This document shows positions 1 through 56,967 of a stretch of 64,000 nucleotides of DNA, one piece after another. This stretch comes from Yuukianura sp. NJ FZ-2021 (taxonomy: Eukaryota), in the NCBI GenBank assembly GCA_046563655.1, contig CM102290.1:10478001-10542000 (forward strand). Direction: 5' to 3'. A model generated the notes under the pieces. The model was not told the origin of the DNA. It saw only the letters and a list, made by a program, of their open reading frames with translations, and searched no databases. The position numbers were made by a program, and so were the translations under genes. The number at the start of each line of letters is the position of its first letter. Positions within the stretch are counted from its first letter, which is position 1.

Positions 1-360
1 GACATGACAGAGAACTTGAAGACCAAAGGAGTTCCCTTTGCCATGACGGAAAACGCGATGACGGACCGGCTTTCCTTATGGGGATATGACGGAAAACGTG
101 ATGACGGACAAAAATACTTTTATAAAGTAGCTAAAGCTACTTAATAACTGTTGTTTCTTTTTCTTCATTCTCCAAATTGTAACTAAAAATAACAATTTGT
201 TTTTTTCTTTTTCTGACAAAATGTTAGAAATCGGTAAAATTCAGTTTTCCAGAAACTAAACTTCTAAAAACGATTTCCAATTTCACTCTGTCCACCTTTC
301 AGACTTACCAATTATGTCACTGAAAATTCTTAAATAGAACAGCAAAGAATCTCAAGTTAA

Positions 361-412
361 TACGGTTTCTGACTGCTGTCGTCATCAGTACCGAGCAACA
401 CGGTAGACCGTA
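361..412 (-). ncRNA. Type III hammerhead ribozyme motif
   Basis: The minus strand reads UACGG-UC / UACCG-uguugcu-CGGUA / CUGAUGA / c-GAC-agca-GUC-a / GAAA-CCGUA. It has an intact CUGAUGA and GAAA core, a GUC cleavage triplet (cut predicted between 406 and 405), a perfect 5-bp stem I and a perfect 5-bp stem III. Stem II has only 3 bp, with a C.A mismatch at its base. Confidence 0.75.
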
Positions 413-422
413 GTGCAATGGT

Positions 423-471
423 CCCTTTGTGCATAACATACCAGATTTAAGTTTCTGGTAGTTGTGCAGGG
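423..471. other. Long imperfect hairpin next to the hammerhead
   Basis: tgcataac-a-taccaga (430-445) pairs with tctggta-gttgtgca (454-468) around an 8-nt loop, with outer ccc/ggg. A TGGTCCCT direct repeat lies at 419-426 and 474-481. Confidence 0.6.
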
Positions 472-480
472 TGTGGTCCC

Positions 481-1700
481 TCTAGCGTATAAAAAAACCG
501 AAAGTCACATTAAAAATACACGAAGACCCATACAACAAAAGATAAGTCAATTAAAAAAAACCGAAAGTCCCGTTAATACACAAGATCCATACAACAATAG
601 ATAAGTCAATGACTACGCTCGAGATTCCGGCCTCATTCACTCGAACTGGCGCACACCGGACTCACCAAGAGTGATTCACACCCCTCTTTGCCCCGTGCCA
701 CCTGAACAGCTACTTGCAAGCCTCATCCGTCTTCGCGCCCAATCTACTGCCGTATGTTCTAGCGTTTAAGAAAAAAACCGAAAGTCACATTAAAAATACA
801 CGAAGACCCATACAACAAAAGATAAGTCAATTAAAAAAAAACTAAAGTCCCGTTAATACACAAGATCCATACAACAATAGATAAGTCAATGACTACGCTC
901 GAGATTCCGGCCTCATTCACTCGAACTGGCGCACACCGGACTCACCAAGAGAGATTCACACCCCTCTTTGCCCCGTGCCACCTGAACAGCTACTTGCAAG
1001 CCTCATCCGTCTTCGCGCCCAATCTACTGCCGTATGTTCTAGCGTTTAAGAAAAAAACCGAAAGTCCCGTTAAATATACACAAAGATCAATTCAACAAAA
1101 GATAAGTCAATTAAAAAAACCGAAAGTCACATTAAAAATACACGAAGACCCATACAACAAAAGATAAGTCAATTAAAAAAAAACCGAAAGTCCCGTTAAA
1201 TATACACAAGATCCATCCGTCCTCGCGCCCAATCTACTGCCGTATGTTCTAGCGTTTAGGATAAAAAAACCGAAAGTCCCGTTAAATATACACGAAGATC
1301 AATTCAACGAAAGATAAGTCAATTAAAAAAAACCGAAAGTCCCGTTAATACACAAGATCCATACAACAATAGATAAGTCAATGACTACGCTCGAGATTCC
1401 GGCCTCATTCACTCGAACTGGCGCACACCGGACTCACCAAGAGAGATTCACACCCCTCTTTGCCCCGTGCCACCTGAACAGCTACTTGCAAGCCTCATCC
1501 GTCTTCGCGCCCAATCTACTGCCGTATGTTCTAGCGTTTAAGAAAAAAACCGAAAGTCCCGTTAAATATACACAAAGATCAATTCAACAAAAGATAAGTC
1601 AATTAAAAAAAAAACCGAAAGTCCCGTTAATACACAAGATCCATACAACAATAGATAAGTCACTGGTAAACCATTGACTACGCTCGAGATTCCGACCCCA
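481..1700. repeat. Tandem repeat block A: ~165-bp core plus ~55-bp A-rich subrepeats
   Basis: The core ATGACTACGCTCGAGATTCCGG...GTTCTAGCG occurs at ~609, 889 and 1381, with partial copies at ~1213 and ~1675. Cores are separated by variable numbers of AAAAAAACCGAAAGTC...GATAAGTCAA units. Confidence 0.95.
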
Positions 1701-1703
1701 AAC

Positions 1704-4700
1704 TCTAATAATAACACTTCTGCTGCGCATTCAAGCAAGAGACACAGGGACTAAGTTTTTTACCACATCCCCGAACCAATGCGGATTGAGACTTTGAAAC
1801 GATCTGTGCATGGACACATTCGCCAAGAAGTGATTCCGTAGGTTTCGGTTGTGGGATTTAGTATGTGTTCCTAAGTGATGGTACAGAGAAGGTTTAGTCA
1901 AAAATTTAAAGTTCATTTTACAATTTTTTGAACCAAAATTACGAAACAAACTCCAGATTTTTTTTATATACACGAAGATCCATACGACAGAGGACTAGTC
2001 AATGACTACGCTCGAGATTCCGGCCCCAGTTCACTCGGACTGGCACACTCCGGACTTACCGAGAGAGATTCACACCCCTCCCTGCCCTGTGTCACCTGAA
2101 CAGCTACTCGCAAGCCTCGATCCGTCTTCGCGCCCAATCTACTGCAATGCCGTATGTTCCAGTGTATATGAAAAAAACCGAAAGTCACGTTAAATGTCAA
2201 GTCTCGTTAACTCTAATAATAACACTTCTGCTGCGATATGAATAAAACCGAAAGTCACGTTAAATGTCAAGTCAAGTCTCGTTAACTCTAATAATAACAC
2301 TTCTGCTGCGCATTCAAGCAAGAGACACAGGGACTAAGTTTTTGTACCACATCCCCGAACCAATGCGGATTGAGACTTTGAAACGATCTGTGCATGGACA
2401 CATTCGCCAAGAAGTGATTCCGTAGGTTTCGGTTGTGGGATTTAGTATGTGTTCCTAAGTGATGGTACAGAGAAGGTTTAGTCAAAAATTTAAAGTTCAT
2501 TTTACAATTTTTTGAACCAAAATTACGAAACAAACTCCAGATTTTTTATATACACGAAGATCCACACGACAGAGGACTAGTCAATGACTACGCTCGAGAT
2601 TCCGGCCCCAGTTCACTCGGACTGGCACACTCCGGACTTACCGAGAGAGATTCACACCCCTCCCTGCCCTGTGTCACCTGAACAGCTACTCGCAAGCCTC
2701 GATCCGTCTTCGCGCCCAATCTACTGCAATGCCGTATGTTCCAGTGTATATGAAAAAAACCGAAAGTCACGTTAAATGTCAAGTCTCGTTAACTCTAATA
2801 ATAACACTTCTGCTGCGATATGAATAAAACCGAAAGTCACGTTAAATGTCAAGTCAAGTCTCGTTAACTCTAATAATAACACTTCTGCTGCGCATTCAAG
2901 CAAGAGACACAGGGACTAAGTTTTTGTACCACATCCCCGAACCAATGCGGATTGAGACTTTGAAACGATCTGTGCATGGACACATTCGCCAAGAAGTGAT
3001 TCCGTAGGTTTCGGTTGTGGGATTTAGTATGTGTTCCTAAGTGATGGTACAGAGAAGGTTTAGTCAAAAATTTAAAGTTCATTTTACAATTTTTTGAACC
3101 AAAATTACGAAACAAACTCCAGATTTTTTTATATACACGAAGATCCACACGACAGAGGACTAGTCAATGACTACGCTCGAGATTCCGGCCCCAGTTCACT
3201 CGGACTGGCACACTCCGGACTTACCGAGAGAGATTCACACCCCTCCCTGCCCTGTGTCACCTGAACAGCTACTCGCAAGCCTCGATCCGTCTTCGCGCCC
3301 AATCTACTGCAATGCCGTATGTTCCAGTGTATATGAAAAAAACCGAAAGTTCACGTTAAATGTCAAATCAAGTCTCGTTAACTCTAATAATAACACTTCT
3401 GCTGCGATATGAAAAAAACCGAAAGTCAATGTTAAATGTCAAGTCAAGTCTCGTTAACTCTAATAATAACACTTCTGCTGTGCATTCAAGCAAGAGACAC
3501 AGGGACTAAGTTTTTGTACCACATCCCCGAACCAATGCGGATTGAGACTTTGAAACGATCTGTGCCTGGACACATTCGCCAAGAAGTGATTCCGTAGGTT
3601 TCGGTTGTGGGATTTAGTATGTGTTCCTAAGTGATGGTACAGAGAAGGTTTAGTCAAAAATTTAAAGTTCATTTTACAATTTTTTGAACCAAAATTACGA
3701 AACAGACTCCAGATTTTTTTTATATACACGAAGATCCACACGACAGAGGACTAGTCAATGACTACGCTCGAGATTCCGGCCCCAGTTCACTCGGACTGGC
3801 ACACTCCGGACTTACCGAGAGAGATTCACACCCCTCCCTGCCCTGTGTCACCTGAACAGCTACTCGCAAGCCTCGATCCGTCTTCGCGCCCAATCTACTG
3901 CAATGCCGTATGTTCCAGTGTATATGAAAAAAACCGAAAGTTCACGTTAAATGTCAAATCAAGTCTCGTTAACTCTAATAATAACACTTCTGCTGCGATA
4001 TGAAAAAAACCGAAAGTCAATGTTAAATGTCAAGTCAAGTCTCGTTAACTCTAATAATAACACTTCTGCTGTGCATTCAAGCAAGAGACACAGGGACTAA
4101 GTTTTTGTACCACATCCCCGAACCAATGCGGATTGAGACTTTGAAACGATCTGTGCCTGGACACATTCGCCAAGAAGTGATTCCGTAGGTTTCGGTTGTG
4201 GGATTTAGTATGTGTTCCTAAGTGATGGTACAGAGAAGGTTTAGTCAAAAATTTAAAGTTCATTTTACAATTTTTTGAACCAAAATTACGAAACAGACTC
4301 CAGATTTTTTTTATATACACGAAGATCCACACGACAGAGGACTAGTCAATGACTACGCTCGAGATTCCGGCCCCAGTTCACTCGGACTGGCACACTCCGG
4401 ACTTACCGAGAGAGATTCACACCCCTCCCTGCCCTGTGTCACCTGAACAGCTACTTGCAAGCCTCGATCCGTCTTCGCGCCCAATCTACTGCAATGCCGT
4501 ATGTTCCAGTGTATATGAAAAAAACCGAAAGTCACGTTAAATGTCAAGTAAAGTCTCGTTAACTCTAATAATAACACTTCTGCTGCGCATTCAAGCAAGA
4601 GACACAGGGACTAAGTTTTTTACCACATCCCCGAACCAATGCGGATTGAGACTTTGAAACGATCTGTGCATGGACACATTCGCCAAGAAGTGATTCCGTA

Positions 4701-4824
4701 GGTTTCGGTTGTGGGATTTAGTATGTGTTCCTAAGTGATGGTACAGAGAAGGTTTAGTCAAAAATTTAAACTTCATTTTCCTATTTTTTGAACCAAAATT
4801 ACCAAACAAACTCCAGATTTTTTC
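1704..4824 (+). repeat. Tandem repeat block B: ~5.5 units of ~582-591 bp, probably Helitron-derived
   Basis: Marker ATGACTACGC at 2002, 2584, 3167, 3758 and 4349 gives periods of 582, 583, 591 and 591. Each unit has a TCTAATAATAAC start and a CTAGT junction and contains a diverged version of the block A core. The repeat is directly visible; the Helitron origin is inferred from the TC...CTAG-type ends. Confidence 0.9.
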
Positions 4825-5341: not shown

Positions 5342-6025
5342 TTAATTCGTGTTTGGAAAAAGATGAACGAGAACGAGAGAGGGAAGATGACATGGAGAAA
5401 GAAGCCATCACTAAAAATCCAAATCTACCAAGTCTACAAACAGCTGATATTGAAAAAATGGTAATTTCCAAAGTTTGCAACTTTTAGAAAAGATTATTTT
5501 TTGAAAATTTCGAATTTGGTCTGAACAGGCTGACAAACTCATCGAAGCTCCTTGATGTATTCAAAGATGATTGATGAACACCCTCTCCTGCAAGCCTACG
5601 GTGCTGAGACACTGAATGAGTTCATGACCAAAGTGCTAAGTTTAAGTACTATCAAGGCAATAGAGTTGGAACAAAGCATTATGCTACTTCCGGTTTCCTA
5701 CGTTCATCAAATGATTCCCGCACTGGAGCAAGTACTTGTCCACTTTCCCGTTTACGCTGAACTTGCAATCAAATGTCTCTCGGCTGTTGTCAACTTCCAC
5801 TTGGATTCTCTGCGCCGAGTCGATAAAGAACTGTTGAACAAAGTAGCGGATTTGGCAGAGTCCAGAGGCCTTGAACTGAGCGACAGACTTGGAGTGAACA
5901 TCGCCTCAAATTTTTGCAGGAGTCGGTAACAATGGCAGAAAACTTGGCGTGAAATTTTGAATCTACCGTGGGAGATGTGAAACGTAAGAGGAAACAGAGC
6001 GAAAAACTTATCAAAAGAGCCTTTG
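5342..6025 (+). pseudogene. WDR3: WDR3/Utp12 (Dip2) C-terminal gene fragment, disrupted
   Basis: Translated pieces LIRVWKK..DEREREREDD..EKM | ADKLIEA..HPLLQAYG..ELEQSIMLLPVSYV..GVNIA..LKFLQE..KRKRKQSEKLI match the Utp12 C-terminal domain. A GT-AG intron is retained (5461-5528). There are frameshifts at ~5360, ~5550 and ~5905 and an in-frame TGA at ~5950, and the WD40 N-terminus is absent. Confidence 0.8.
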
Positions 6026-44493: not shown

Positions 44494-47114
44494 TCAGGCT
44501 CCAAAATAGGATCCATTGAGATAAGTTGGAAATGGGGGCGGTGGAGGCTGCTGACGTGGCGGTGGACCGAGACTTGATCCGGGTGAAGTCATCTCTGGCC
44601 CTTTACCATCTGAAAATACGTTTTCAGAAGAAAAATTAATTAAAAATGTGTCTAACTTAAGCAGACTTTAGAGTATAACCCGACGTTCATGAACGGTCAA
44701 CTATGGACACTTTAGGTTTATGTTATGCCCACGAAGTAGAATCTAAATGTCGTCATGAAGAGTACTCGTCGTCCATAAGTGACCGTCCACGAGAGCCCTA
44801 CATTCATCTAGACTTGTATTGCACTGGTTTCCCGCCAAATTCAAAACGTTGTGAAACGTTTTCACGACGTTTTGATGCTATTTGAATCTAACCATTCTCA
44901 GAGTTGCTCTCTTCTGCTCTTTCGTAGTGCGGCGACTCTTCGAGATCTTCAATTCTTGGACTGTGATCTTGTTTGATACTGGAAGAGCCTGGATCCGAGT
45001 CAATCTTGTCACTGTCTCCTTCTTGCCCATGTGAGTTCCCGTTGCCATTGCCAGTTGAGGATACGTCAAGCGGTTCTTCTGGAGAGTAGCCCGAAACGTC
45101 TTCCATCTTGAGATTTAGCCCTTGGTAAGGAGACATAGGGAAACTGCCTTTGCGATATGGACGGTTCGTCGTTATTCCCAACTTCTTGACCTTGTCATAG
45201 AGCGTTCGAGACGGAACGCCATACTTCCGAGCAGCTTGTAAGGCACTCATCCCGGCACGAACGGCTTCAATTGCTGCCATGATGTCATTCCGAGTGTACT
45301 GTTTGTACCGTTTCCACTCTGGTTTCTGATTGGATCCGCCATAACCCGCCATCCCTGTGGAACAAGTAAGGAAAAAAGGCAGAAAATGCATTAAGTTGTT
45401 TATAGTTTTTGTTCCAAATTCGATAAGATTAGTAAATAGAAACTACACATTTCAAATCCAGCTGCTTATTAACTATGTAAGTGTGTGTGTGTTTCCTTGT
45501 TGTTCCAGCCAAGTTTGGCCCATTTCATCGAAAGTTCCCGCAATGGATGAAAATGTGTGTGATTTAACGTAATCGTGTGCCATTTAACCTCATTCAATGT
45601 CCAAAACCACTTACCCTGCTTATTATCTTCCGAGTCCAGGCTAAAGGAATGATTGTCTTCGTGCATCTGAAAAATAGATAAACAAGACTCTAGGTTATGC
45701 TTGACTCTGCACATTTATTAATCTGCTAAGCACTTTAAACCTTGACATTACGGGTGAATGGACCAAGTTCTACTTTTTAAGTTGGTGACATAGACATACA
45801 AACACACAGAAAGATGACAAAAATAACAAGCTTGGACTTACCTTATCACTCTCGACACTGCGGATGGAGTCATCGAAATACGTGTCTGGAGATTCACGGA
45901 GTCCCTGCAAATCATGTCCAGAAGTTATTATTACCTGCAGCTTTTAAACTTAATTCATTTTAAATCAATTCAATCCCCGGATGAACAAAAATGAATGACG
46001 CACAATTGCATTGTTTTTCTCAAATTTAAAAAATCTGCTCAAAAGGACGTTAATCCGACAGTCCAGCAGTTTCGTTTCTTGTAACAAAATTGCTGAATTG
46101 GTCTCTAATGTAATGTACATGTAATATAATGCAATAATTCTACTTTGACCTTGAACTTTAGATTGCACTGGACATGAAGGTTACCTTGTCACTGTTGTCG
46201 TTGGGTCCATTACTGTTGGGTGTCCCACTACCAGAGAGTGAATAATTGATTGACTTGACCTGTGGCTCACAGTTTGGATGGGAAGCCGTGTGACCCAAGA
46301 CTGTCCTCAGAATCGGCGTATCCTTATTGAGGTTCGTATTTGAGCTGCTTCCGCTGCTATAGTACAATTTCTTACGTTTGAAACATGATGTAGACTCTAC
46401 TGAATTTTCATAGGTTGTGGATATGGAGGAAACTCCGCCGTGGATTGGTGACGATGACGCTGATGGCAACTTCGTTGATGACCAAGCATGGAAGGATGGG
46501 ATGGAGTTCCTCTCTGGCGGTAGTACGGCACTGTAAGGTGACTCTGTCGGAATGAACTTATTATTCGGTGGCAAATGATTATTTTTTGGATAGGACGGAC
46601 CGACTCCGACGTTGTTGTCGTAGTCAAGTTGCGGCAGAGGCGGTGGGGGAGGTGGAGCTGGAGGTCGAACTTGCTGCTGCTGAGTTGACTGAGCGAAATT
46701 TGTTGTCGAAGAGTGCGGCGACGAATTGCCGACTGCTGCCGAAGACGTTCTCTGATGATCTTCTACGAGCCCTTTGACCTTGAGCGTTTCTGCTGCCTTG
46801 AGCAAGCCGGACAACTGATCTTGACCAACATTGACCTCCCCTTTGTACATGTACTCCAGGATGGCCTTGACCTCTGAGAACAGAATGTCCTTGAGGATGA
46901 CAATGGGATGTCGACAGTCGTTTTCCAGGAACAATTGCTGGAAGTATGAGGAACAGGCTGCCAACACCATTTTATGACACTTGATTGAGTGGCCGTCACA
47001 GGCTAACGTCACGTCCGTAAACGCTTCGGTATGAAACAAATGTTCAAAGACCAGGAGTAAGTTGGAGCGGTGATTGTTCCAACGAAGACAGTATTGCTGA
47101 TTTGCTTGTCCCAT
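44494..47114 (-). CDS. lov: BTB/POZ plus pipsqueak HTH transcription factor (Tkr/jim lovell-like)
   Basis: Exon 47114-46185 carries a tramtrack-type BTB (QQYCLRWNNH...DVTLACDG...HKMVLAACS...LKVKGL). It is followed by 45904(or 45934)-45842, 45666-45615, 45354-44893 (WKRYKQYTRNDIMAAIEAVRAGMSALQAARKYGVPSRTLYDKVKKLGI, psq motif) and 44609-44494; an alternative stop lies at 44888. Confidence 0.88.
44687..44791. mobile_element. Short inverted-repeat element in the last lov intron
   Basis: GAACGGTCAACTATGGAC ... GTCCATAAGTGACCGTCC imperfect inverted repeat; same end motif as 22010-22296. Confidence 0.5.
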
Positions 47115-50100
47115 TCTTGATTTGTAGGAGCCGTTCGAGAGCACTGAAGAACTGAAAACAGAAGAAATTTATTTTACTGAAGAGACTGGAAGAACGTTGA
47201 CGCAGGGTGGGCAACTTTGCCGCTGCGGAAAACTTGCACTGGTGGAAGGTTAGGTTAACCTAAAATTGGCAAACTGACTTGGAGCGCGTTGGGGATGAAA
47301 CTGACGAAACTAAACGGTGTACCCTTTACTACCCTCCAACTTTACGGTGTCAAGCGTATTACGACTGCTAATAACGATTCACCGTCACTGTTCAAACCGT
47401 GTCAACCGCCATTCCTCCTGACCACCATGACTTTGCTGGGTGTGGATAAGCCAAAAAAATTTTGCGTGTAGAATGGAGACAGCAGGAGTAAAGTTAGGGA
47501 GGTGTTTTCTGGACCTGGCAGAAGGAAACCCAGTATAAATTGGTCCGAGCTCTCCGTGGATACCCAAAAAAGAGTTACTTGGAGTGGAGCTCTGTGCCGA
47601 GCCTTGTAAATTGGACTTTTTCTACTTCTTCTGCGGGGGGATGATGGGGATGGTTTTGGGGGGTACGGGAGCTCTTAGGTCCAGGGTGGGAACGTTACGG
47701 AAGATGGCTGCAATTTTGAGGGGCTGACTAAGAGAGGGAAGTGCTTAGGCTTGAGTAAGATCCAGAATGAAAGCTAAGGCTGACTTTGGCCTCGGCTTCC
47801 CTAAGCCAAGCTATTATAGGCCTCTTTAGATTACGTAATGCACAAAATGCACTTTCCGAGGTGATGGTTGGGGGGGGGGGTGTTCTTAAGGGGAGGTGTT
47901 CAAACTAGCTTTCCTAAATATACCCCCAAAATCCTATCGTGTCCAGAGTGTACCAGAATATCCAAAGACCATGTCATTCTTACCCAGAGACCCAGAATGT
48001 CATGGAATACTTGGTAGTAAGTTGGCCTGTCTGCGCCAAAAGCCTCCAAGCTTTGGCCAAAAACCTTTCGTTTTGTACAGACAACAATAGAATCCTCCCC
48101 ATCCCCACCCGCCCCCAGGGGCAACAATAGGCTATTCCTCCCCACTCCATGACCATGCACATCCACTTGATTAATCCCTACTCTTGCCAAATTTCTTCCA
48201 TCCCTGTGGCCCTGTAGGGGCCCTTAAGGCCCAACCTGCTCCAACTAACTACCCTTCCTAAAATATTTCAGCCCCTTTAAAAGTAAACACAGGGTAAAGG
48301 GCCCCATGAATCCAGAACAATGGGCCAAGGGACATGCCAAAACATGACAGTGACAGCAACGAAAACTGCAAAGTTCAACAAAACAAAAGGGATTTAGGAA
48401 TAAGCAAAGTCCAAAGCTCCATTTTCCAAGAATTCTTTGACTAATATCGACGATACTAACTTACCAACGTTTATGATGGATGTACATTCCGGTATCGAGA
48501 TATCAGGAACGAACAATACACGGCAAGCGTAACTGCAAAAATTGCGATTCGCGAAACGTAAAACTGTAGTCGCCGTATCCACCTTAGGTTTGACGTGTGA
48601 CGGTAGACATATTAGTACAGTTGACATTACATTTTACTAATTAATTAAGCAGTACATAGAAGATTATAATTACATTTACCTACCTATACTAATTACGTTT
48701 TGCTTACGTTTCAGGAACGTTTGAATCTGCACAGCGACATGAAACTGAAGTCTGGTATTCGGTACGTTTTACGTAACTGGTACACGTAAATGAAACGATA
48801 TGGCGGTAGACCTACAACGGTATTCCGTGTCACCAACAATCGAACAACAGCGACTAAGTCAAAAAAACGGTGCCACCGTTAGGAACAATGTCAGTATGCG
48901 GAGTGATGAGAGGTTCTGCAAACCCTTTTATGAAAATTGCAATGTCCAGCGTCGATATGAATGGTGGAGTTATGCAGTCACGTGATTCAATGAGAGGAAT
49001 TGTTTGATTTTGATTGTTCTCGAATCGTTGATTGGTGGATTTTGGCCATCTAGTGCCAATGCATAGTTTCATGCAAATTTTTAGCCACCTTCTGGTCACC
49101 CATTCGCAATGTCATTGTCATTGTTAAAAGTTTTGTATTAATTCAATTCGAATTAATTTCGATTTTTCAATTATATAAAAACCACAATACTAAGAAAATG
49201 TTAGGTTTCTAACATTAATATAAACGTGCAAATTCGTTTTAGCAACTTCGCCAAGATTGGCAATGGAATCTCAACCTTGCACAAATTTCTCGTCATTAGC
49301 CAAAAATTTGCATAAGGACTGTACTGTTTCGCCTTTGTTCAAGTTAAGGTGGCTTTGATTAGTAGCATGGTGTGATCATTCGCAAATTGCAAATCTTAAA
49401 TGGTGTGAATTTGCAAAAAAAAAGAGGAAAAAAAACTTTCGAATATTACTAAGAAGTTTGGTTTTAACCTGAGATTAAAAATAAGATTAGAAAAATTCCA
49501 TTTGGAATTCTAAATTTGGCAATAAGTTGTAAGTTTTGCATGGAAACAGTGCACTAAAAAGTAGCATGACTCTGAAAAGAATGGGATAAGCTGCTTTTTG
49601 TAAAAAAAAAAAAATCAAAATGCGAAGGGGAGATGAAATCTGGGCTTGGGCGTTTTTTAAAAAAAAAGAAGCTTTTTAAAACAAAAAAATTCCTGCTGTA
49701 ACTTGTTCCTTGGAATTTGTTAAAAGAAGTGCTTTGTGCAAAAAAACAATAAATTGCTGAATCCCACGACCCATCAACCCCCCTATATTTCTATTTTCAA
49801 AAATACGTTGGAATTTGTTTTTTCATGATTTGATTTTTAAAACAAGAGTTTGAAATTTTGAAACAAGATGGCGAGTACAGTAGCTAGAGTTTTGGAATAA
49901 GAGTTCGGTAGCTCCATGAGATGGCGTAAGCATCCTACGCATTTTACGCACATGACGCACTTTTTTTTTCTTGAAAAAGCCATATTAAGACACATCAGAA
50001 TTTTTACAATTCAAAATTAATATTTTTTGTAACAAAAATATCTGACAACTTCGGTGTATCTTTATTTGTTCATTGCAAAAAGCAATGCTGAAGAGTATGA

Positions 50101-54200: not shown

Positions 54201-56967
54201 CAATATCTTTCTGCGCCTTTCGCGCTCCTTGCATCTCAACTTCCAAATTCTCCCTCCTCCACTTCATTTAATGTCATTTTCTAAGCCTTGTAGAAGGTGA
54301 GTAGATTAAAACTGCCTAACGTAAGGCAAAGATACTAGACACAAACATTTTGCTTATTCGACGAAATTTTCGCGCGAAAAAGCAACACAGTCCCAAATTT
54401 AAATTCACGAATCTTTTTTCAAGTTTGAAAAATAACGGAACTTGTAATGAAATGGGACTTTCGTAGAATTGTAGAATTTATTGCAAAAATGTCAACATTG
54501 CAAAAAGCCACGGCGGGCAAAATTTGCAACTTTTTCGCAATCTTATCTCAAGTGCAATAAAGATCCAACAGCCTCTTCCATATCAAGGTGGCTTCTGTTT
54601 TAAATTTCCAATAATTTGGCCCGTAATTTTTTGTAATTGTGATTTAAATTTTTGAAAATTTTAATTTTAATTGCTCTTTCACTGCGCAGCTCGGCTCAGT
54701 GGTCTAGTGGTATGATTTACGCTTTGGGTATTCAAATTTGTGTAAGACACGGGTTCGATTCCCGTCTGAGCCCGAAAATTTCTTTTTCGCTCAAATTAAT
54801 GCCCTACGCTTTCATTTGTTTGTCTGATTTAATTATTTTTAATAAAAGGTGCACTCATCAATACTTTTGAAACTCTAACTTTCACAATGTTTAATTGGCA
54901 GGGTAATTAAAGTAAGTAACGTAATGTTGATTAGGCTAATGAGTTTGTGTTATGTTGTAATTGATGTTTGTTTGGGTAGAGCAGCTTTACATAATGTTCA
55001 GTATGTATCGAGGTTACATATTAGGTTAAGTATGGGAATTCTATTTCTGAAAATACATTCAACGCTGCGAATCAATCATAATTTGTTCCACGTTGGATTT
55101 AGGTGTGACAGGGAGAATAGGGAGGGAGAAAGCGCGGGAAAACTTTCTCTCTTCAAAATCAGAGAATTTGAGAGGAACGCGGCGGGAAGTAACAACGAGG
55201 AAAGAAAAGTTTTGGATGTCAATTAAATTAAAGGGGAGAGAAGGGCCCTTGAGCCCTTAAACCCTCCAGCAGAAGTTGACCTGTCAGTCACAAAAGCCAC
55301 TTTTGAGGTCAATTCAATTTGACTTTTGGACCTAAGCAAGGTCAAGGTCCATGGTAGCTAAACCGCAATTTTTGCGGCGTAAGCAACGCAACAGCATCGT
55401 GTAACGTTTCTTTTTCACGGGCTACGTGCTTCTGTTCCTATCGCTTTCTCCGATGACACTTTTTGGCATGGTGAGAAAAAGACAGGGGTAGCAGGTTTAC
55501 ACGATTTCACGAGTTGCAAAGCCCAACGCGATCTGAATAAGCAATTTCATTAAGAGTGGCTCGCAAAAGTCTCGCAAGCGCGACAAAATTTCAAATTTTG
55601 AAAAACTCTGATTAAACATTGCAAGCTGAAGTAAATATGCCGTGTTTACTGTCTAAATAATTTGATTTGCATTTGTTATAAGTTAACCTATCGTTTTCTG
55701 TAGTTAGCTTAACTGTATACTATGCTTAATCATAATCACCTAAAAGTTAAACAGTCAACTCACTTCTGTACTTTATTAGATGAAAAATGCTGGCCAACAT
55801 TCGTAACTCCGAATTCGGTGCTTTCGGTCCGTCTTCATTCTAAAATAAAACAACAATGACTTAGCCGTTGATGTTTTTTTTTGTAAGACGTTCTTATGTA
55901 TGTGCAAAAATAGTTAATGACTTGAACTTTTTTTTTGCAATTTGACAAGTTCCAGACAACTTGTCAACCATGTTTAAGTTTCTGTTCTAAAATTTCGTTC
56001 TAATTGATTAAATGGACCAGAACAGGCTAAGATGGATGGAGTGATAATGGGTGTCATAAAGACAATGGACACTTCCCCTTGCCTCATCTCCTCATAAAAC
56101 CGGAACAGAAACTTTTTACGAGTTTGACAAATAACTGTGGCGTTTGCATTGGGCGACTCAAACTGCGTTCGTAACTCACTCGGATCATGATAGACACGGC
56201 GACGACCCCGTTGGGTTTGAGCAGCGCTTCGGACAAGTTGGCGTACAGCTCCACGTTGAAACCATAAAGCTGCAGCTGTAAAAACAATAAACTGAATTTA
56301 ATTTACAACTCTATGCGCATTAAAAGTTTTCCAGCAGAAAAGTTACAACTGGAATTGAATCATCATGGGGCAGGATGAGTCAACTGGAATTTCAATTTTC
56401 AAACTTTCCCTCTTTACGAAAAAAGTGAACACCCATGGTCACTGGACCGAACGTCAATTCAATTCCTTTCCAAAATATGAACTTTCATCAACTTTCTTTT
56501 TCCAACTTCACAAATAAATTTTCCAAACTTTTCGAGAAGAGGATTTAGCGCTACTTTCGACATAAACTGGATGAAAAACAGGCGAAAATCATATATTTTT
56601 TATAATTTCAAAGAAAAAAAAACCTCGTGCGTTATAAAACGAATTTTGTTCGTGTGTCGTTGGAAAAGTAGACTTTGCATGAATTTTCAAATAAATGAAT
56701 TTGAAAACTGACGCTTCGTTCAATTTTAATCGCCAAGCGCGGAATTTGATATCGTCGGAATTTTTTAAAAGATGGACTGACCTCGGCTGGAAACGCGATT
56801 CCGTCGATCAAATGTTCTGAGCCTAACAAATCTTCTGGACCAAAGTGAATGTAGAGCTCTTCAAATTGGTAACGATAGGTCAAGGGACCACCGGAAATGT
56901 TGACCCGTACTCCCCTCTCAGCTGAAAACACAACTGTTTGTCCAGTATTCCGCAGAGTTCCACTAAT
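51279..56967 (-). CDS. Carbonic anhydrase-related protein (CA10/CA11-like, acatalytic), 3' exons only
   Basis: Exons 56967-56782, 56275-56180, 55839-55764, 53356-53202 (YMTYEGSTTHPGCWETVTW), 53135-53007 (NVRPAQ...RTVRTNI) and 51350-51279 (KKCPTM...). The zinc ligands are replaced (ELYIHFG, ELQLYG). The N-terminal exons were not found and probably lie beyond the window end. Confidence 0.9.
54693..54773 (+). tRNA. tRNA-Pro(TGG) with a 10-nt intron (54729-54738)
   Basis: Acceptor stem GGCTCAG/CTGAGCC, A-box TGGTCTAGTGG, anticodon stem TACGC/GTGTA, anticodon TGG at 54725-54727, T-arm ACGGG-TTCGATT-CCCGT and a T-run at ~54783. It is antisense within a CARP intron. Confidence 0.85.

Follow-up and report, generated by a model that had tools for sequence, protein, structure and literature searches.

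The question raised by positions 361-412 of this stretch of DNA is whether a complete hammerhead core, read on the minus strand of an animal genome, is a self-cleaving RNA or has only the shape of one. We analysed the whole stretch of 64,000 nucleotides (hereafter the window), the DNA contigs that match its first part, and a set of natural hammerheads that served as controls. The preliminary description had called the motif a functional or recently decayed self-cleaving RNA. Our own reading, held at somewhat better than even confidence, is that it is a crippled, or never catalytic, hammerhead-shaped motif in the end block of a dispersed repeat associated with a tandem array.

The anatomy originally reported for the motif is correct in every part when read from the sequence, namely the type III topology, stems I (5 bp) and III (6 bp), both loops, and a 3-bp stem II with a basal C.A mismatch (Table 1). 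All 13 core positions are present (C3, U4, G5, A6, N7, G8, A9, G12, A13, A14, A15.1, U16.1 and H17). The topology test was passed as well, stem III being open and the other two stems capped by loops, with only three pairs in stem II. A descriptor scan of both strands of the 64 kb found 29 CUGANGA sites and a single match, the one at 361-412. Two of the three core-adjacent pairs are formed (U405-A389 and A366-U407), while C381.A370 is unpaired. An alternative labelling was tried and set aside, in which C381 is an extra nucleotide after A9, A370 an extra one before G12, and G380-C371 takes the place of 10.1/11.1; this is the same structure renamed, and the stacking on the core is not restored by it.

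Table 1. Features of the motif and of its immediate surroundings, in window coordinates.
Feature	Position	Strand	Remark
Block recurring elsewhere in the genome	361..492		DNA contigs matched to window 1-500
Hammerhead-shaped motif, type III topology (stem III open)	361..412	-	predicted cut C406/U405
Stem III, 5' strand UACGGU	407..412	-	pairs with 361-366 (ACCGUA), 6 Watson-Crick pairs
A15.1(366)-U16.1(407) pair, within stem III	366/407	-	Watson-Crick
C17 (base 406)	406	-	GUC cleavage site, predicted cut between 406 and 405
Stem I, UACCG (405-401) / CGGUA (393-389)	389..405	-	5 bp; sequence read
Heptaloop 1, UGUUGCU, closing stem I	394..400	-	fits UNmYN; U1, G2, pyrimidine 6
Core box CUGAUGA (C3-A9)	382..388	-	sequence read
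Base of stem II, C381 (10.1) facing A370 (11.1)	370/381	-	mispair; sequence read
Stem II, GAC (380-378) / GUC (373-371)	371..380	-	3 pairs; sequence read
Tetraloop 2, AGCA, closing stem II	374..377	-	5' purine, 3' A (RNnA)
Core G12 A13 A14, first three letters of the GAAAC box	367..369	-	sequence read
Long imperfect hairpin in the same repeated block	421..478		more stable on the plus strand
Tandem array adjoining the block	481..4823		self-BLAST, Tandem Repeats Finder

The pair missing next to the core lies at a position on which the literature is specific. The G10.1-C11.1 pair has been termed 'highly conserved' (PMC4209133). A divalent ion is bound by the N7 of G10.1 together with the phosphate of A9, and 7-deaza-G10.1 was reported to bring a 30-fold loss of rate (PMC6795133). 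Because cytosine has no guanine N7, the divalent-ion ligand at 10.1 is absent from the motif. Perreault et al. (2011) rejected candidates mispaired at N10.1-N11.1, and one sentence of their methods describes the rejected matches as mainly cryptic mutant hammerheads within repeated elements (PMC3088659). Engineered 'minizymes', in which a linker replaces helix II, are still able to cleave according to the report on them (PMC544870). The motif could be a working type III ribozyme, maybe slow or conditional, that tolerates C.A at 10.1/11.1, perhaps as a protonated wobble, and the published searches that discarded such mispairs, as their methods are described, would have missed variants of this kind. 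We consider this unlikely, the missing purine N7 at 10.1 being the first of several points against it.

Other parts of the motif agree well with such a ribozyme. The loops had been likened to those of plant satellite RNAs, and the likeness holds: UGUUGCU and AGCA fit both docking motifs given by Dufour et al., UNmYN for loop 1 and RNnA for loop 2, and loop 1 matches, in U1, G2 and a pyrimidine at position 6, the heptaloop class of sTRSV, sLTSV and CChMVd (PMC2632901). Both motifs are also fitted by 16 of 27 natural hammerheads. The change U6C in loop 1 was reported to reduce the activity of CChMVd, and the candidate has C, not U, at position 6. Canonical type III hammerheads are described as having a helix I of 6 bp with a loop of 6-8 nt and a helix II of 4 bp with a loop of 4 nt (PMC7936874). 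The geometry of the candidate is near canonical, with 5 bp and a 7-nt loop in helix I and four positions and a 4-nt loop in helix II, and this geometry speaks for an active variant, as do the full set of core positions, the GUC site, the GAAAC box and the two docking motifs.

The family models gave a different answer. No hammerhead was found in the whole window at Rfam gathering thresholds. Hammerhead_3 (RF00008), the model that had been named as the check on the motif, gave no match even at E<=10, for either a 401-base or a 60-base stretch (gathering score 48.5). The sole member of the clan reported was Hammerhead_II, whose gathering score is 37; it reached 16.6 bits for the 401 bases (E 0.94) and 16.2 bits for the 60 bases (E 0.18), and the other Rfam families gave chance-level rows only over 200-600 (E 0.94-6.7). 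This lack of Rfam support counts against an active variant.

Natural hammerheads resembling the candidate put these scores into proportion. The exact 24-base core stretch was matched by neither metagenome nor viral contigs (0 in each). A gapped control pattern, which specifies 27 bases in stem I, part of stem III, the cleavage site, CUGAUGA and GAAACC, led to four metagenome loci, one viral locus and one prokaryote-genome locus (L001-L006). All are canonical prokaryote- or phage-style hammerheads, and they served as controls rather than as relatives. They share the same 27 specified bases with the candidate and differ from it in stem II, which is GC-rich and of 4 bp and carries G10.1-C11.1 in all six. 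The stem I that they have in common with the candidate presumably reflects coincidence among very many real hammerheads rather than kinship. The Hammerhead_3 scores of the four metagenomic controls sharing stem I (L001-L004) were 35.5, 41.2, 41.2 and 50.3 bits, and the best clan score of the candidate is at least 19 bits under those of the scanned controls that share its other parts. Since three of these four well-formed controls (35.5-41.2 bits) also fall under the gathering score of 48.5, missing that threshold alone means little. The same figures indicate that Rfam scans at gathering thresholds overlook good hammerheads.

Some features of the control loci deserve mention in their own right. 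Near-identical canonical type III hammerheads occupy L001 1163-1211, L002 217-264, L003 2001-2049 and L005 301-349, in metagenomic or viral contigs. In L001-L003 each hammerhead lies between a GC-rich terminator-like hairpin and a ribosome-binding site followed by ATG, an intergenic placement that is the known phage-style arrangement. The same stem I recurs in the canonical type III hammerhead at L006 301-346, which lies in a contig of a Candidatus Shapirobacteria metagenome-assembled genome.

Folding predictions also argue against the hammerhead. For the 52-mer, the hammerhead structure has a predicted energy of -11.5 kcal/mol versus -14.8 kcal/mol for the minimum free energy (MFE) structure, which makes it 3.3 kcal/mol worse, and the MFE fold pairs CUGAU (C3-U7) with GUCAG (11.3 to G12). 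Calculated with nearest-neighbour energies, the hammerhead share of the ensemble was 0.0014 for the isolated 52-mer and between 1.6e-4 and 5.5e-6 when it was folded within 81-201 nt. Such energies take no account of loop-loop docking, by which real hammerheads are stabilised. Competing folds also occur in the hammerheads of natural viroids. In five of the six controls the hammerhead is the MFE structure. With 3-nt flanks, the MFE structure of L006 is not the hammerhead, owing to its short stem III. A stem II of three weak pairs and a hammerhead fold at no more than 0.14% of the predicted ensemble weigh against cleavage by the motif.

In context, the stem arms re-pair as two hairpins. They are able to do so because all four are close variants of a single short palindromic word (ACGGU / ACCGU) and are mutually complementary, and this two-hairpin alternative is the predicted fold on both strands. 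These properties agree with an explanation in which the stems come from a palindromic word repeated four times in the terminus of a repeat, the core letters are coincidental, and no ancestor ever cleaved. We regard this explanation as possible, if doubtful. Reviews warn that relaxed descriptors give mostly false positives (PMC6155905; PMC3088659), which is in its favour. What it has to overcome is the number of core letters that would have to coincide, to which we return below.

The genomic setting shows what kind of DNA carries the motif. Copies were assessed in the DNA contigs of four runs (two samples from two studies) matched to window 1-500. Window 1-480 matched five runs, with no RNA run listed among them. 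Several contigs match rightwards from 361/362, and their leftward continuations are at least two other sequences. On one side the copies of the block end at 361/362, and on the other at 430, at 460 or beyond 492, with differing continuations. Diverged pieces cover 311-460, 341-460, 354-460 and 379-460, with 26, 18, 10 and 13 differences, respectively. A 929-nt contig of a second organism (organism B) covers 355-492 with two substitutions and one insertion and then continues into array-like sequence. The motif belongs to a repeat, because the contigs show loose ends with different continuations as well as diverged pieces. The recurring unit is about 361-492 and consists of the motif, the imperfect hairpin and the junction to the array. 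Paralogues therefore exist in the DNA contigs of the four runs; their absence had been put forward as part of what would speak against a ribozyme. The statement that no ORF or gene model explains the motif was incomplete, as it left out that the motif is part of a dispersed repeat adjoining a tandem array. Animal hammerheads typically reside in repeats, and the candidate does likewise.

Within the window the block stands alone. Neither a second copy nor a terminal inverted repeat of 340-500 was found in the 64 kb, and the same holds for a second ribozyme, an LTR pair or a hammerhead-bearing tandem unit. The ends of the block do not resemble the termini of Helitron-type elements. Position 35-150, to the left of the block, reaches a summed contig depth of up to about 40,000 (run X2) versus roughly 600-1,500 over 154-357, with many contig ends, which suggests a separate, very abundant repeat.

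The array to the right of the block is 4.3 kb long and repeats about every 280 bp over 481-1700 and about every 583 bp over 1700-4823. Its units of about 280 bp contain sub-repeats of 59-65 bp, and its units of about 583 bp are 98-99.5% alike. Stop-free frames of 60-116 aa inside the array are probably meaningless. The CUGANGA box is absent from 481-4823 on both strands. A retrozyme, of either the LTR or the non-LTR type, was rejected on the basis of the single motif in 64 kb, the lack of a second copy of 340-500 and the array without CUGANGA. If the motif were active, it would cut minus-strand transcripts that leave the array through the block, 45 nt before the end of the repeat, and a single site of this kind could not release a unit-length or circular RNA. 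The neighbouring hairpin likewise speaks for the other strand: over 413-482 its predicted energy is -28.1 kcal/mol with three G.U pairs on the plus strand and -21.6 kcal/mol with none on the minus strand. These energies hint, weakly, at a role of the plus strand should the block act as RNA.

The protein-coding content of the window fits the earlier statement that this is an animal genome. Exons with the Pfam domains BTB, HTH_psq, Utp12, Tcp11 and Lipase_3 are present, and Arthropoda is the most frequent assignment among the Atlas clusters nearest to the BTB ORF, which we treat as a lead only. The one nearby exon is the Utp12-domain exon at 5534-5929 on the plus strand. Judging from this single exon, the motif is probably intronic and antisense with respect to a plus-strand Utp12-domain gene, and a position antisense to its probable host gene is a further point against a working ribozyme. 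Elsewhere in the window, exons for a BTB domain and for HTH_psq are close neighbours at 44888-47168 on the minus strand; given the Atlas clusters, we take these to be an arthropod-style BTB transcription-factor gene. Rfam matches a tRNA at 54693-54773 on the plus strand (50.8 bits) whose anticodon region holds 13 additional bases; it is probably an intron-bearing tRNA gene. ARAGORN listed no tRNA in the window.

Substitutions among the copies were examined for signs that the structure is maintained. A position within 361-412 was counted as variant when it differed at >=10% depth in some run, and letters are given for the plus strand. Eight positions were substituted in the contigs of other copies. 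The change 386 C>T is G5>A, which inactivates the core, and was seen in four contigs in X2, two in X4 and one in X1. Stem II loses two of its three pairs to 371 G>C and 372 A>C, and their partners at 380 and 379 have no listed change. Stem III pairs become G.U through 361 T>C and 411 T>C, and 377 T>C, 394 A>G and 398 A>T are at loop positions. Among the five non-loop substitutions, three are disruptive and none has two-sided compensation, counted on contig-level variants only. In one diverged piece of 120 nt, six listed differences fall in the 52-nt motif and 12 in the other 68 nt, so the motif is not visibly better kept than its flanks. Near-identical copies, including that of organism B, retain the motif, which at 98.5% identity carries little information either way.

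The loss of G5 and of stem II in diverged copies, uncompensated, counts against an active family. A diverged subfamily with A at G5 (CUAAUGA) and without stem II speaks for core letters that were coincidental from the beginning. At 381 and 370 no variant was found at >=10% depth in contigs, so that C.A is common to the copies seen, although contigs lose rare variants and copies with another letter at 10.1/11.1 may exist. A multi-copy family sharing C.A is also what a master copy working with C.A would leave behind, which is in favour of activity.

The frequency of such a motif by chance bears on all of these explanations. A loose type III descriptor, with stems of 3-4 pairs, loops of any length and a basal mismatch permitted, gave six matches when applied to 40 Mb of sequence simulated from a first-order Markov model of the window, one of the six with equally good stems. 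This corresponds to 0.003-0.02 per window, or hundreds per large genome, and an analytic product agrees with it (4.3 expected versus 6 observed). A strict descriptor adds near-canonical loop and stem geometry and the UNmYN and RNnA motifs, so that the full combination consists of the core, an RUH site, a GAAAY box, two Watson-Crick stems, near-canonical geometry and both loop motifs. Its expectation, under an independent-base model and with a descriptor composed after the motif was known, is 2.8e-12 per position, which amounts to 3.6e-7 for one window, 0.006 for a genome of 1 Gb and about 0.09 for 250,000 windows. Even when the three-way junction is taken as given, the probability of core, site and GAAA is 2.9e-7, and with the loop motifs it is 6.7e-9; these two values are what the explanation by a palindromic word and coincidental core letters has to overcome. 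Because the strict expectation is so low, even with independent bases and a post-hoc descriptor, pure coincidence is an uncomfortable explanation and true hammerhead ancestry is a live possibility. The very low expectation is equally a point in favour of an active variant.

Ancestry would take the following form. A repeat ancestral to the present copies would have had a canonical type III ribozyme, in the manner of a retrozyme-like or viroid-like element; pairing at 10.1/11.1 would have disappeared ahead of their spread, and the motif would now be decaying neutrally. We hold this tentatively, and think it rather doubtful. The combination of features is too rich for easy coincidence, the rejects of Perreault et al. 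are said in their methods to be mainly mutant hammerheads in repeated elements (PMC3088659), and the ratio of differences in the motif and its flanks looks neutral. Against this, going from G-C to C.A takes two transversions, fixed while the 13 core letters, the other stems and the loop motifs stayed intact. The same requirement, together with the uniform C.A of the contigs, disfavours the earlier proposal that the ribozyme is recently decayed, as no copy with the canonical pair was seen among the contigs. The lack of any further ribozyme, LTR pair or hammerhead-bearing tandem unit in the 64 kb also counts against descent from such an element, and in the parts of the literature consulted here we found no report of a canonical plant-style type III family in arthropods. 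Between descent from a once-active hammerhead and palindromic arms with a coincidental core, the odds for the origin of the motif are roughly even.

We thus favour the crippled or never catalytic motif, and this reading can be set out as follows. The 52 bases have the shape of a hammerhead and form one end of a structured, repeated block of about 130 bp (361-492) that adjoins tandem arrays. Two arrangements are open to their stem arms, stems I and III or two simple hairpins, and the two hairpins, with a CUGAU/GUCAG helix that buries C3-U7, are predicted to win. With C at 10.1, both the core-adjacent base pair and the ion ligand are missing. We would expect little or no self-cleavage under cellular conditions, and the spread of the block is probably owed to the agent that mobilises the repeat rather than to ribozyme activity. 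The claim of a functional RNA is unlikely to hold: the mispair at 10.1/11.1 is of the kind that Perreault et al. used for rejection (PMC3088659), Hammerhead_3 gives no match, the hammerhead fold is disfavoured, and diverged paralogues carry G5>A and uncompensated stem II changes.

The most far-reaching version of an active motif is an arthropod repeat family flanking satellite arrays, with a plant-satellite-style type III hammerhead that works despite C.A, a variant that no published descriptor search would have retained, and processes antisense array transcripts. We judge this quite improbable. If it were true, animal mobile DNA would be shown to carry the canonical short type III design, and the 10.1/11.1 pair would be dispensable in nature. 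Cleavage by the motif would in any case make it the first short satellite-RNA-style type III hammerhead in an animal repeat and a natural exception to the 10.1/11.1 pairing rule, and would argue for looser filters in ribozyme censuses. As it stands, the locus is a worked example of a shape in a repeat that is perfect in its core and loops and fails the fold, family-model and paralogue tests.

Among known systems, the closest match in design is the heptaloop class of plant satellite and viroid type III hammerheads (sTRSV(+), sLTSV(+) and CChMVd; RF00008). The candidate resembles this class in its open stem III, 13 of 13 core positions, GUC site, GAAAC box, heptaloop 1 with U1, G2 and pyrimidine 6, tetraloop 2 of the form R..A, and helix II of four positions. 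It differs in having C.A rather than G-C at 10.1/11.1, a helix I of 5 rather than 6 bp, and C rather than U at position 6 of loop 1, as well as in lacking a Hammerhead_3 match, in a predicted fold other than the hammerhead, and in its host, which is an animal genome rather than a circular RNA. The candidate was not filed as a member of this RF00008 class, because the pairing rule, the family-model score and the fold test all failed.

Animal hammerheads are for the most part of type I (PMC7229834, PMC4209133), so the emphasis that had been put on finding type III in an animal is justified to that extent. It overlooked precedents in arthropods, as type III hammerheads have been described, with a different architecture, from termites, dipterans and D. 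pseudoobscura (PMC7936874). According to the descriptions of these atypical forms and of those in HDV-like circular RNAs, they share with the candidate a type III topology in arthropod DNA, an isolated position and no nearby ORFs, and they differ from the candidate, which has the short plant-satellite geometry. The hammerheads of animal non-LTR retrozymes and Penelope-like elements are like the candidate in being associated with repeated and tandemly repeated DNA of an invertebrate genome. They are of type I and carry a ribozyme in every tandem unit or flanking repeat, whereas the candidate is single and lies outside an array that has no CUGANGA. The mutant hammerheads rejected by Perreault et al. 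(2011), as the methods of that study describe them, are like the candidate in having an intact core, a core-adjacent mispair, and a place in a dispersed repeat of an animal genome.
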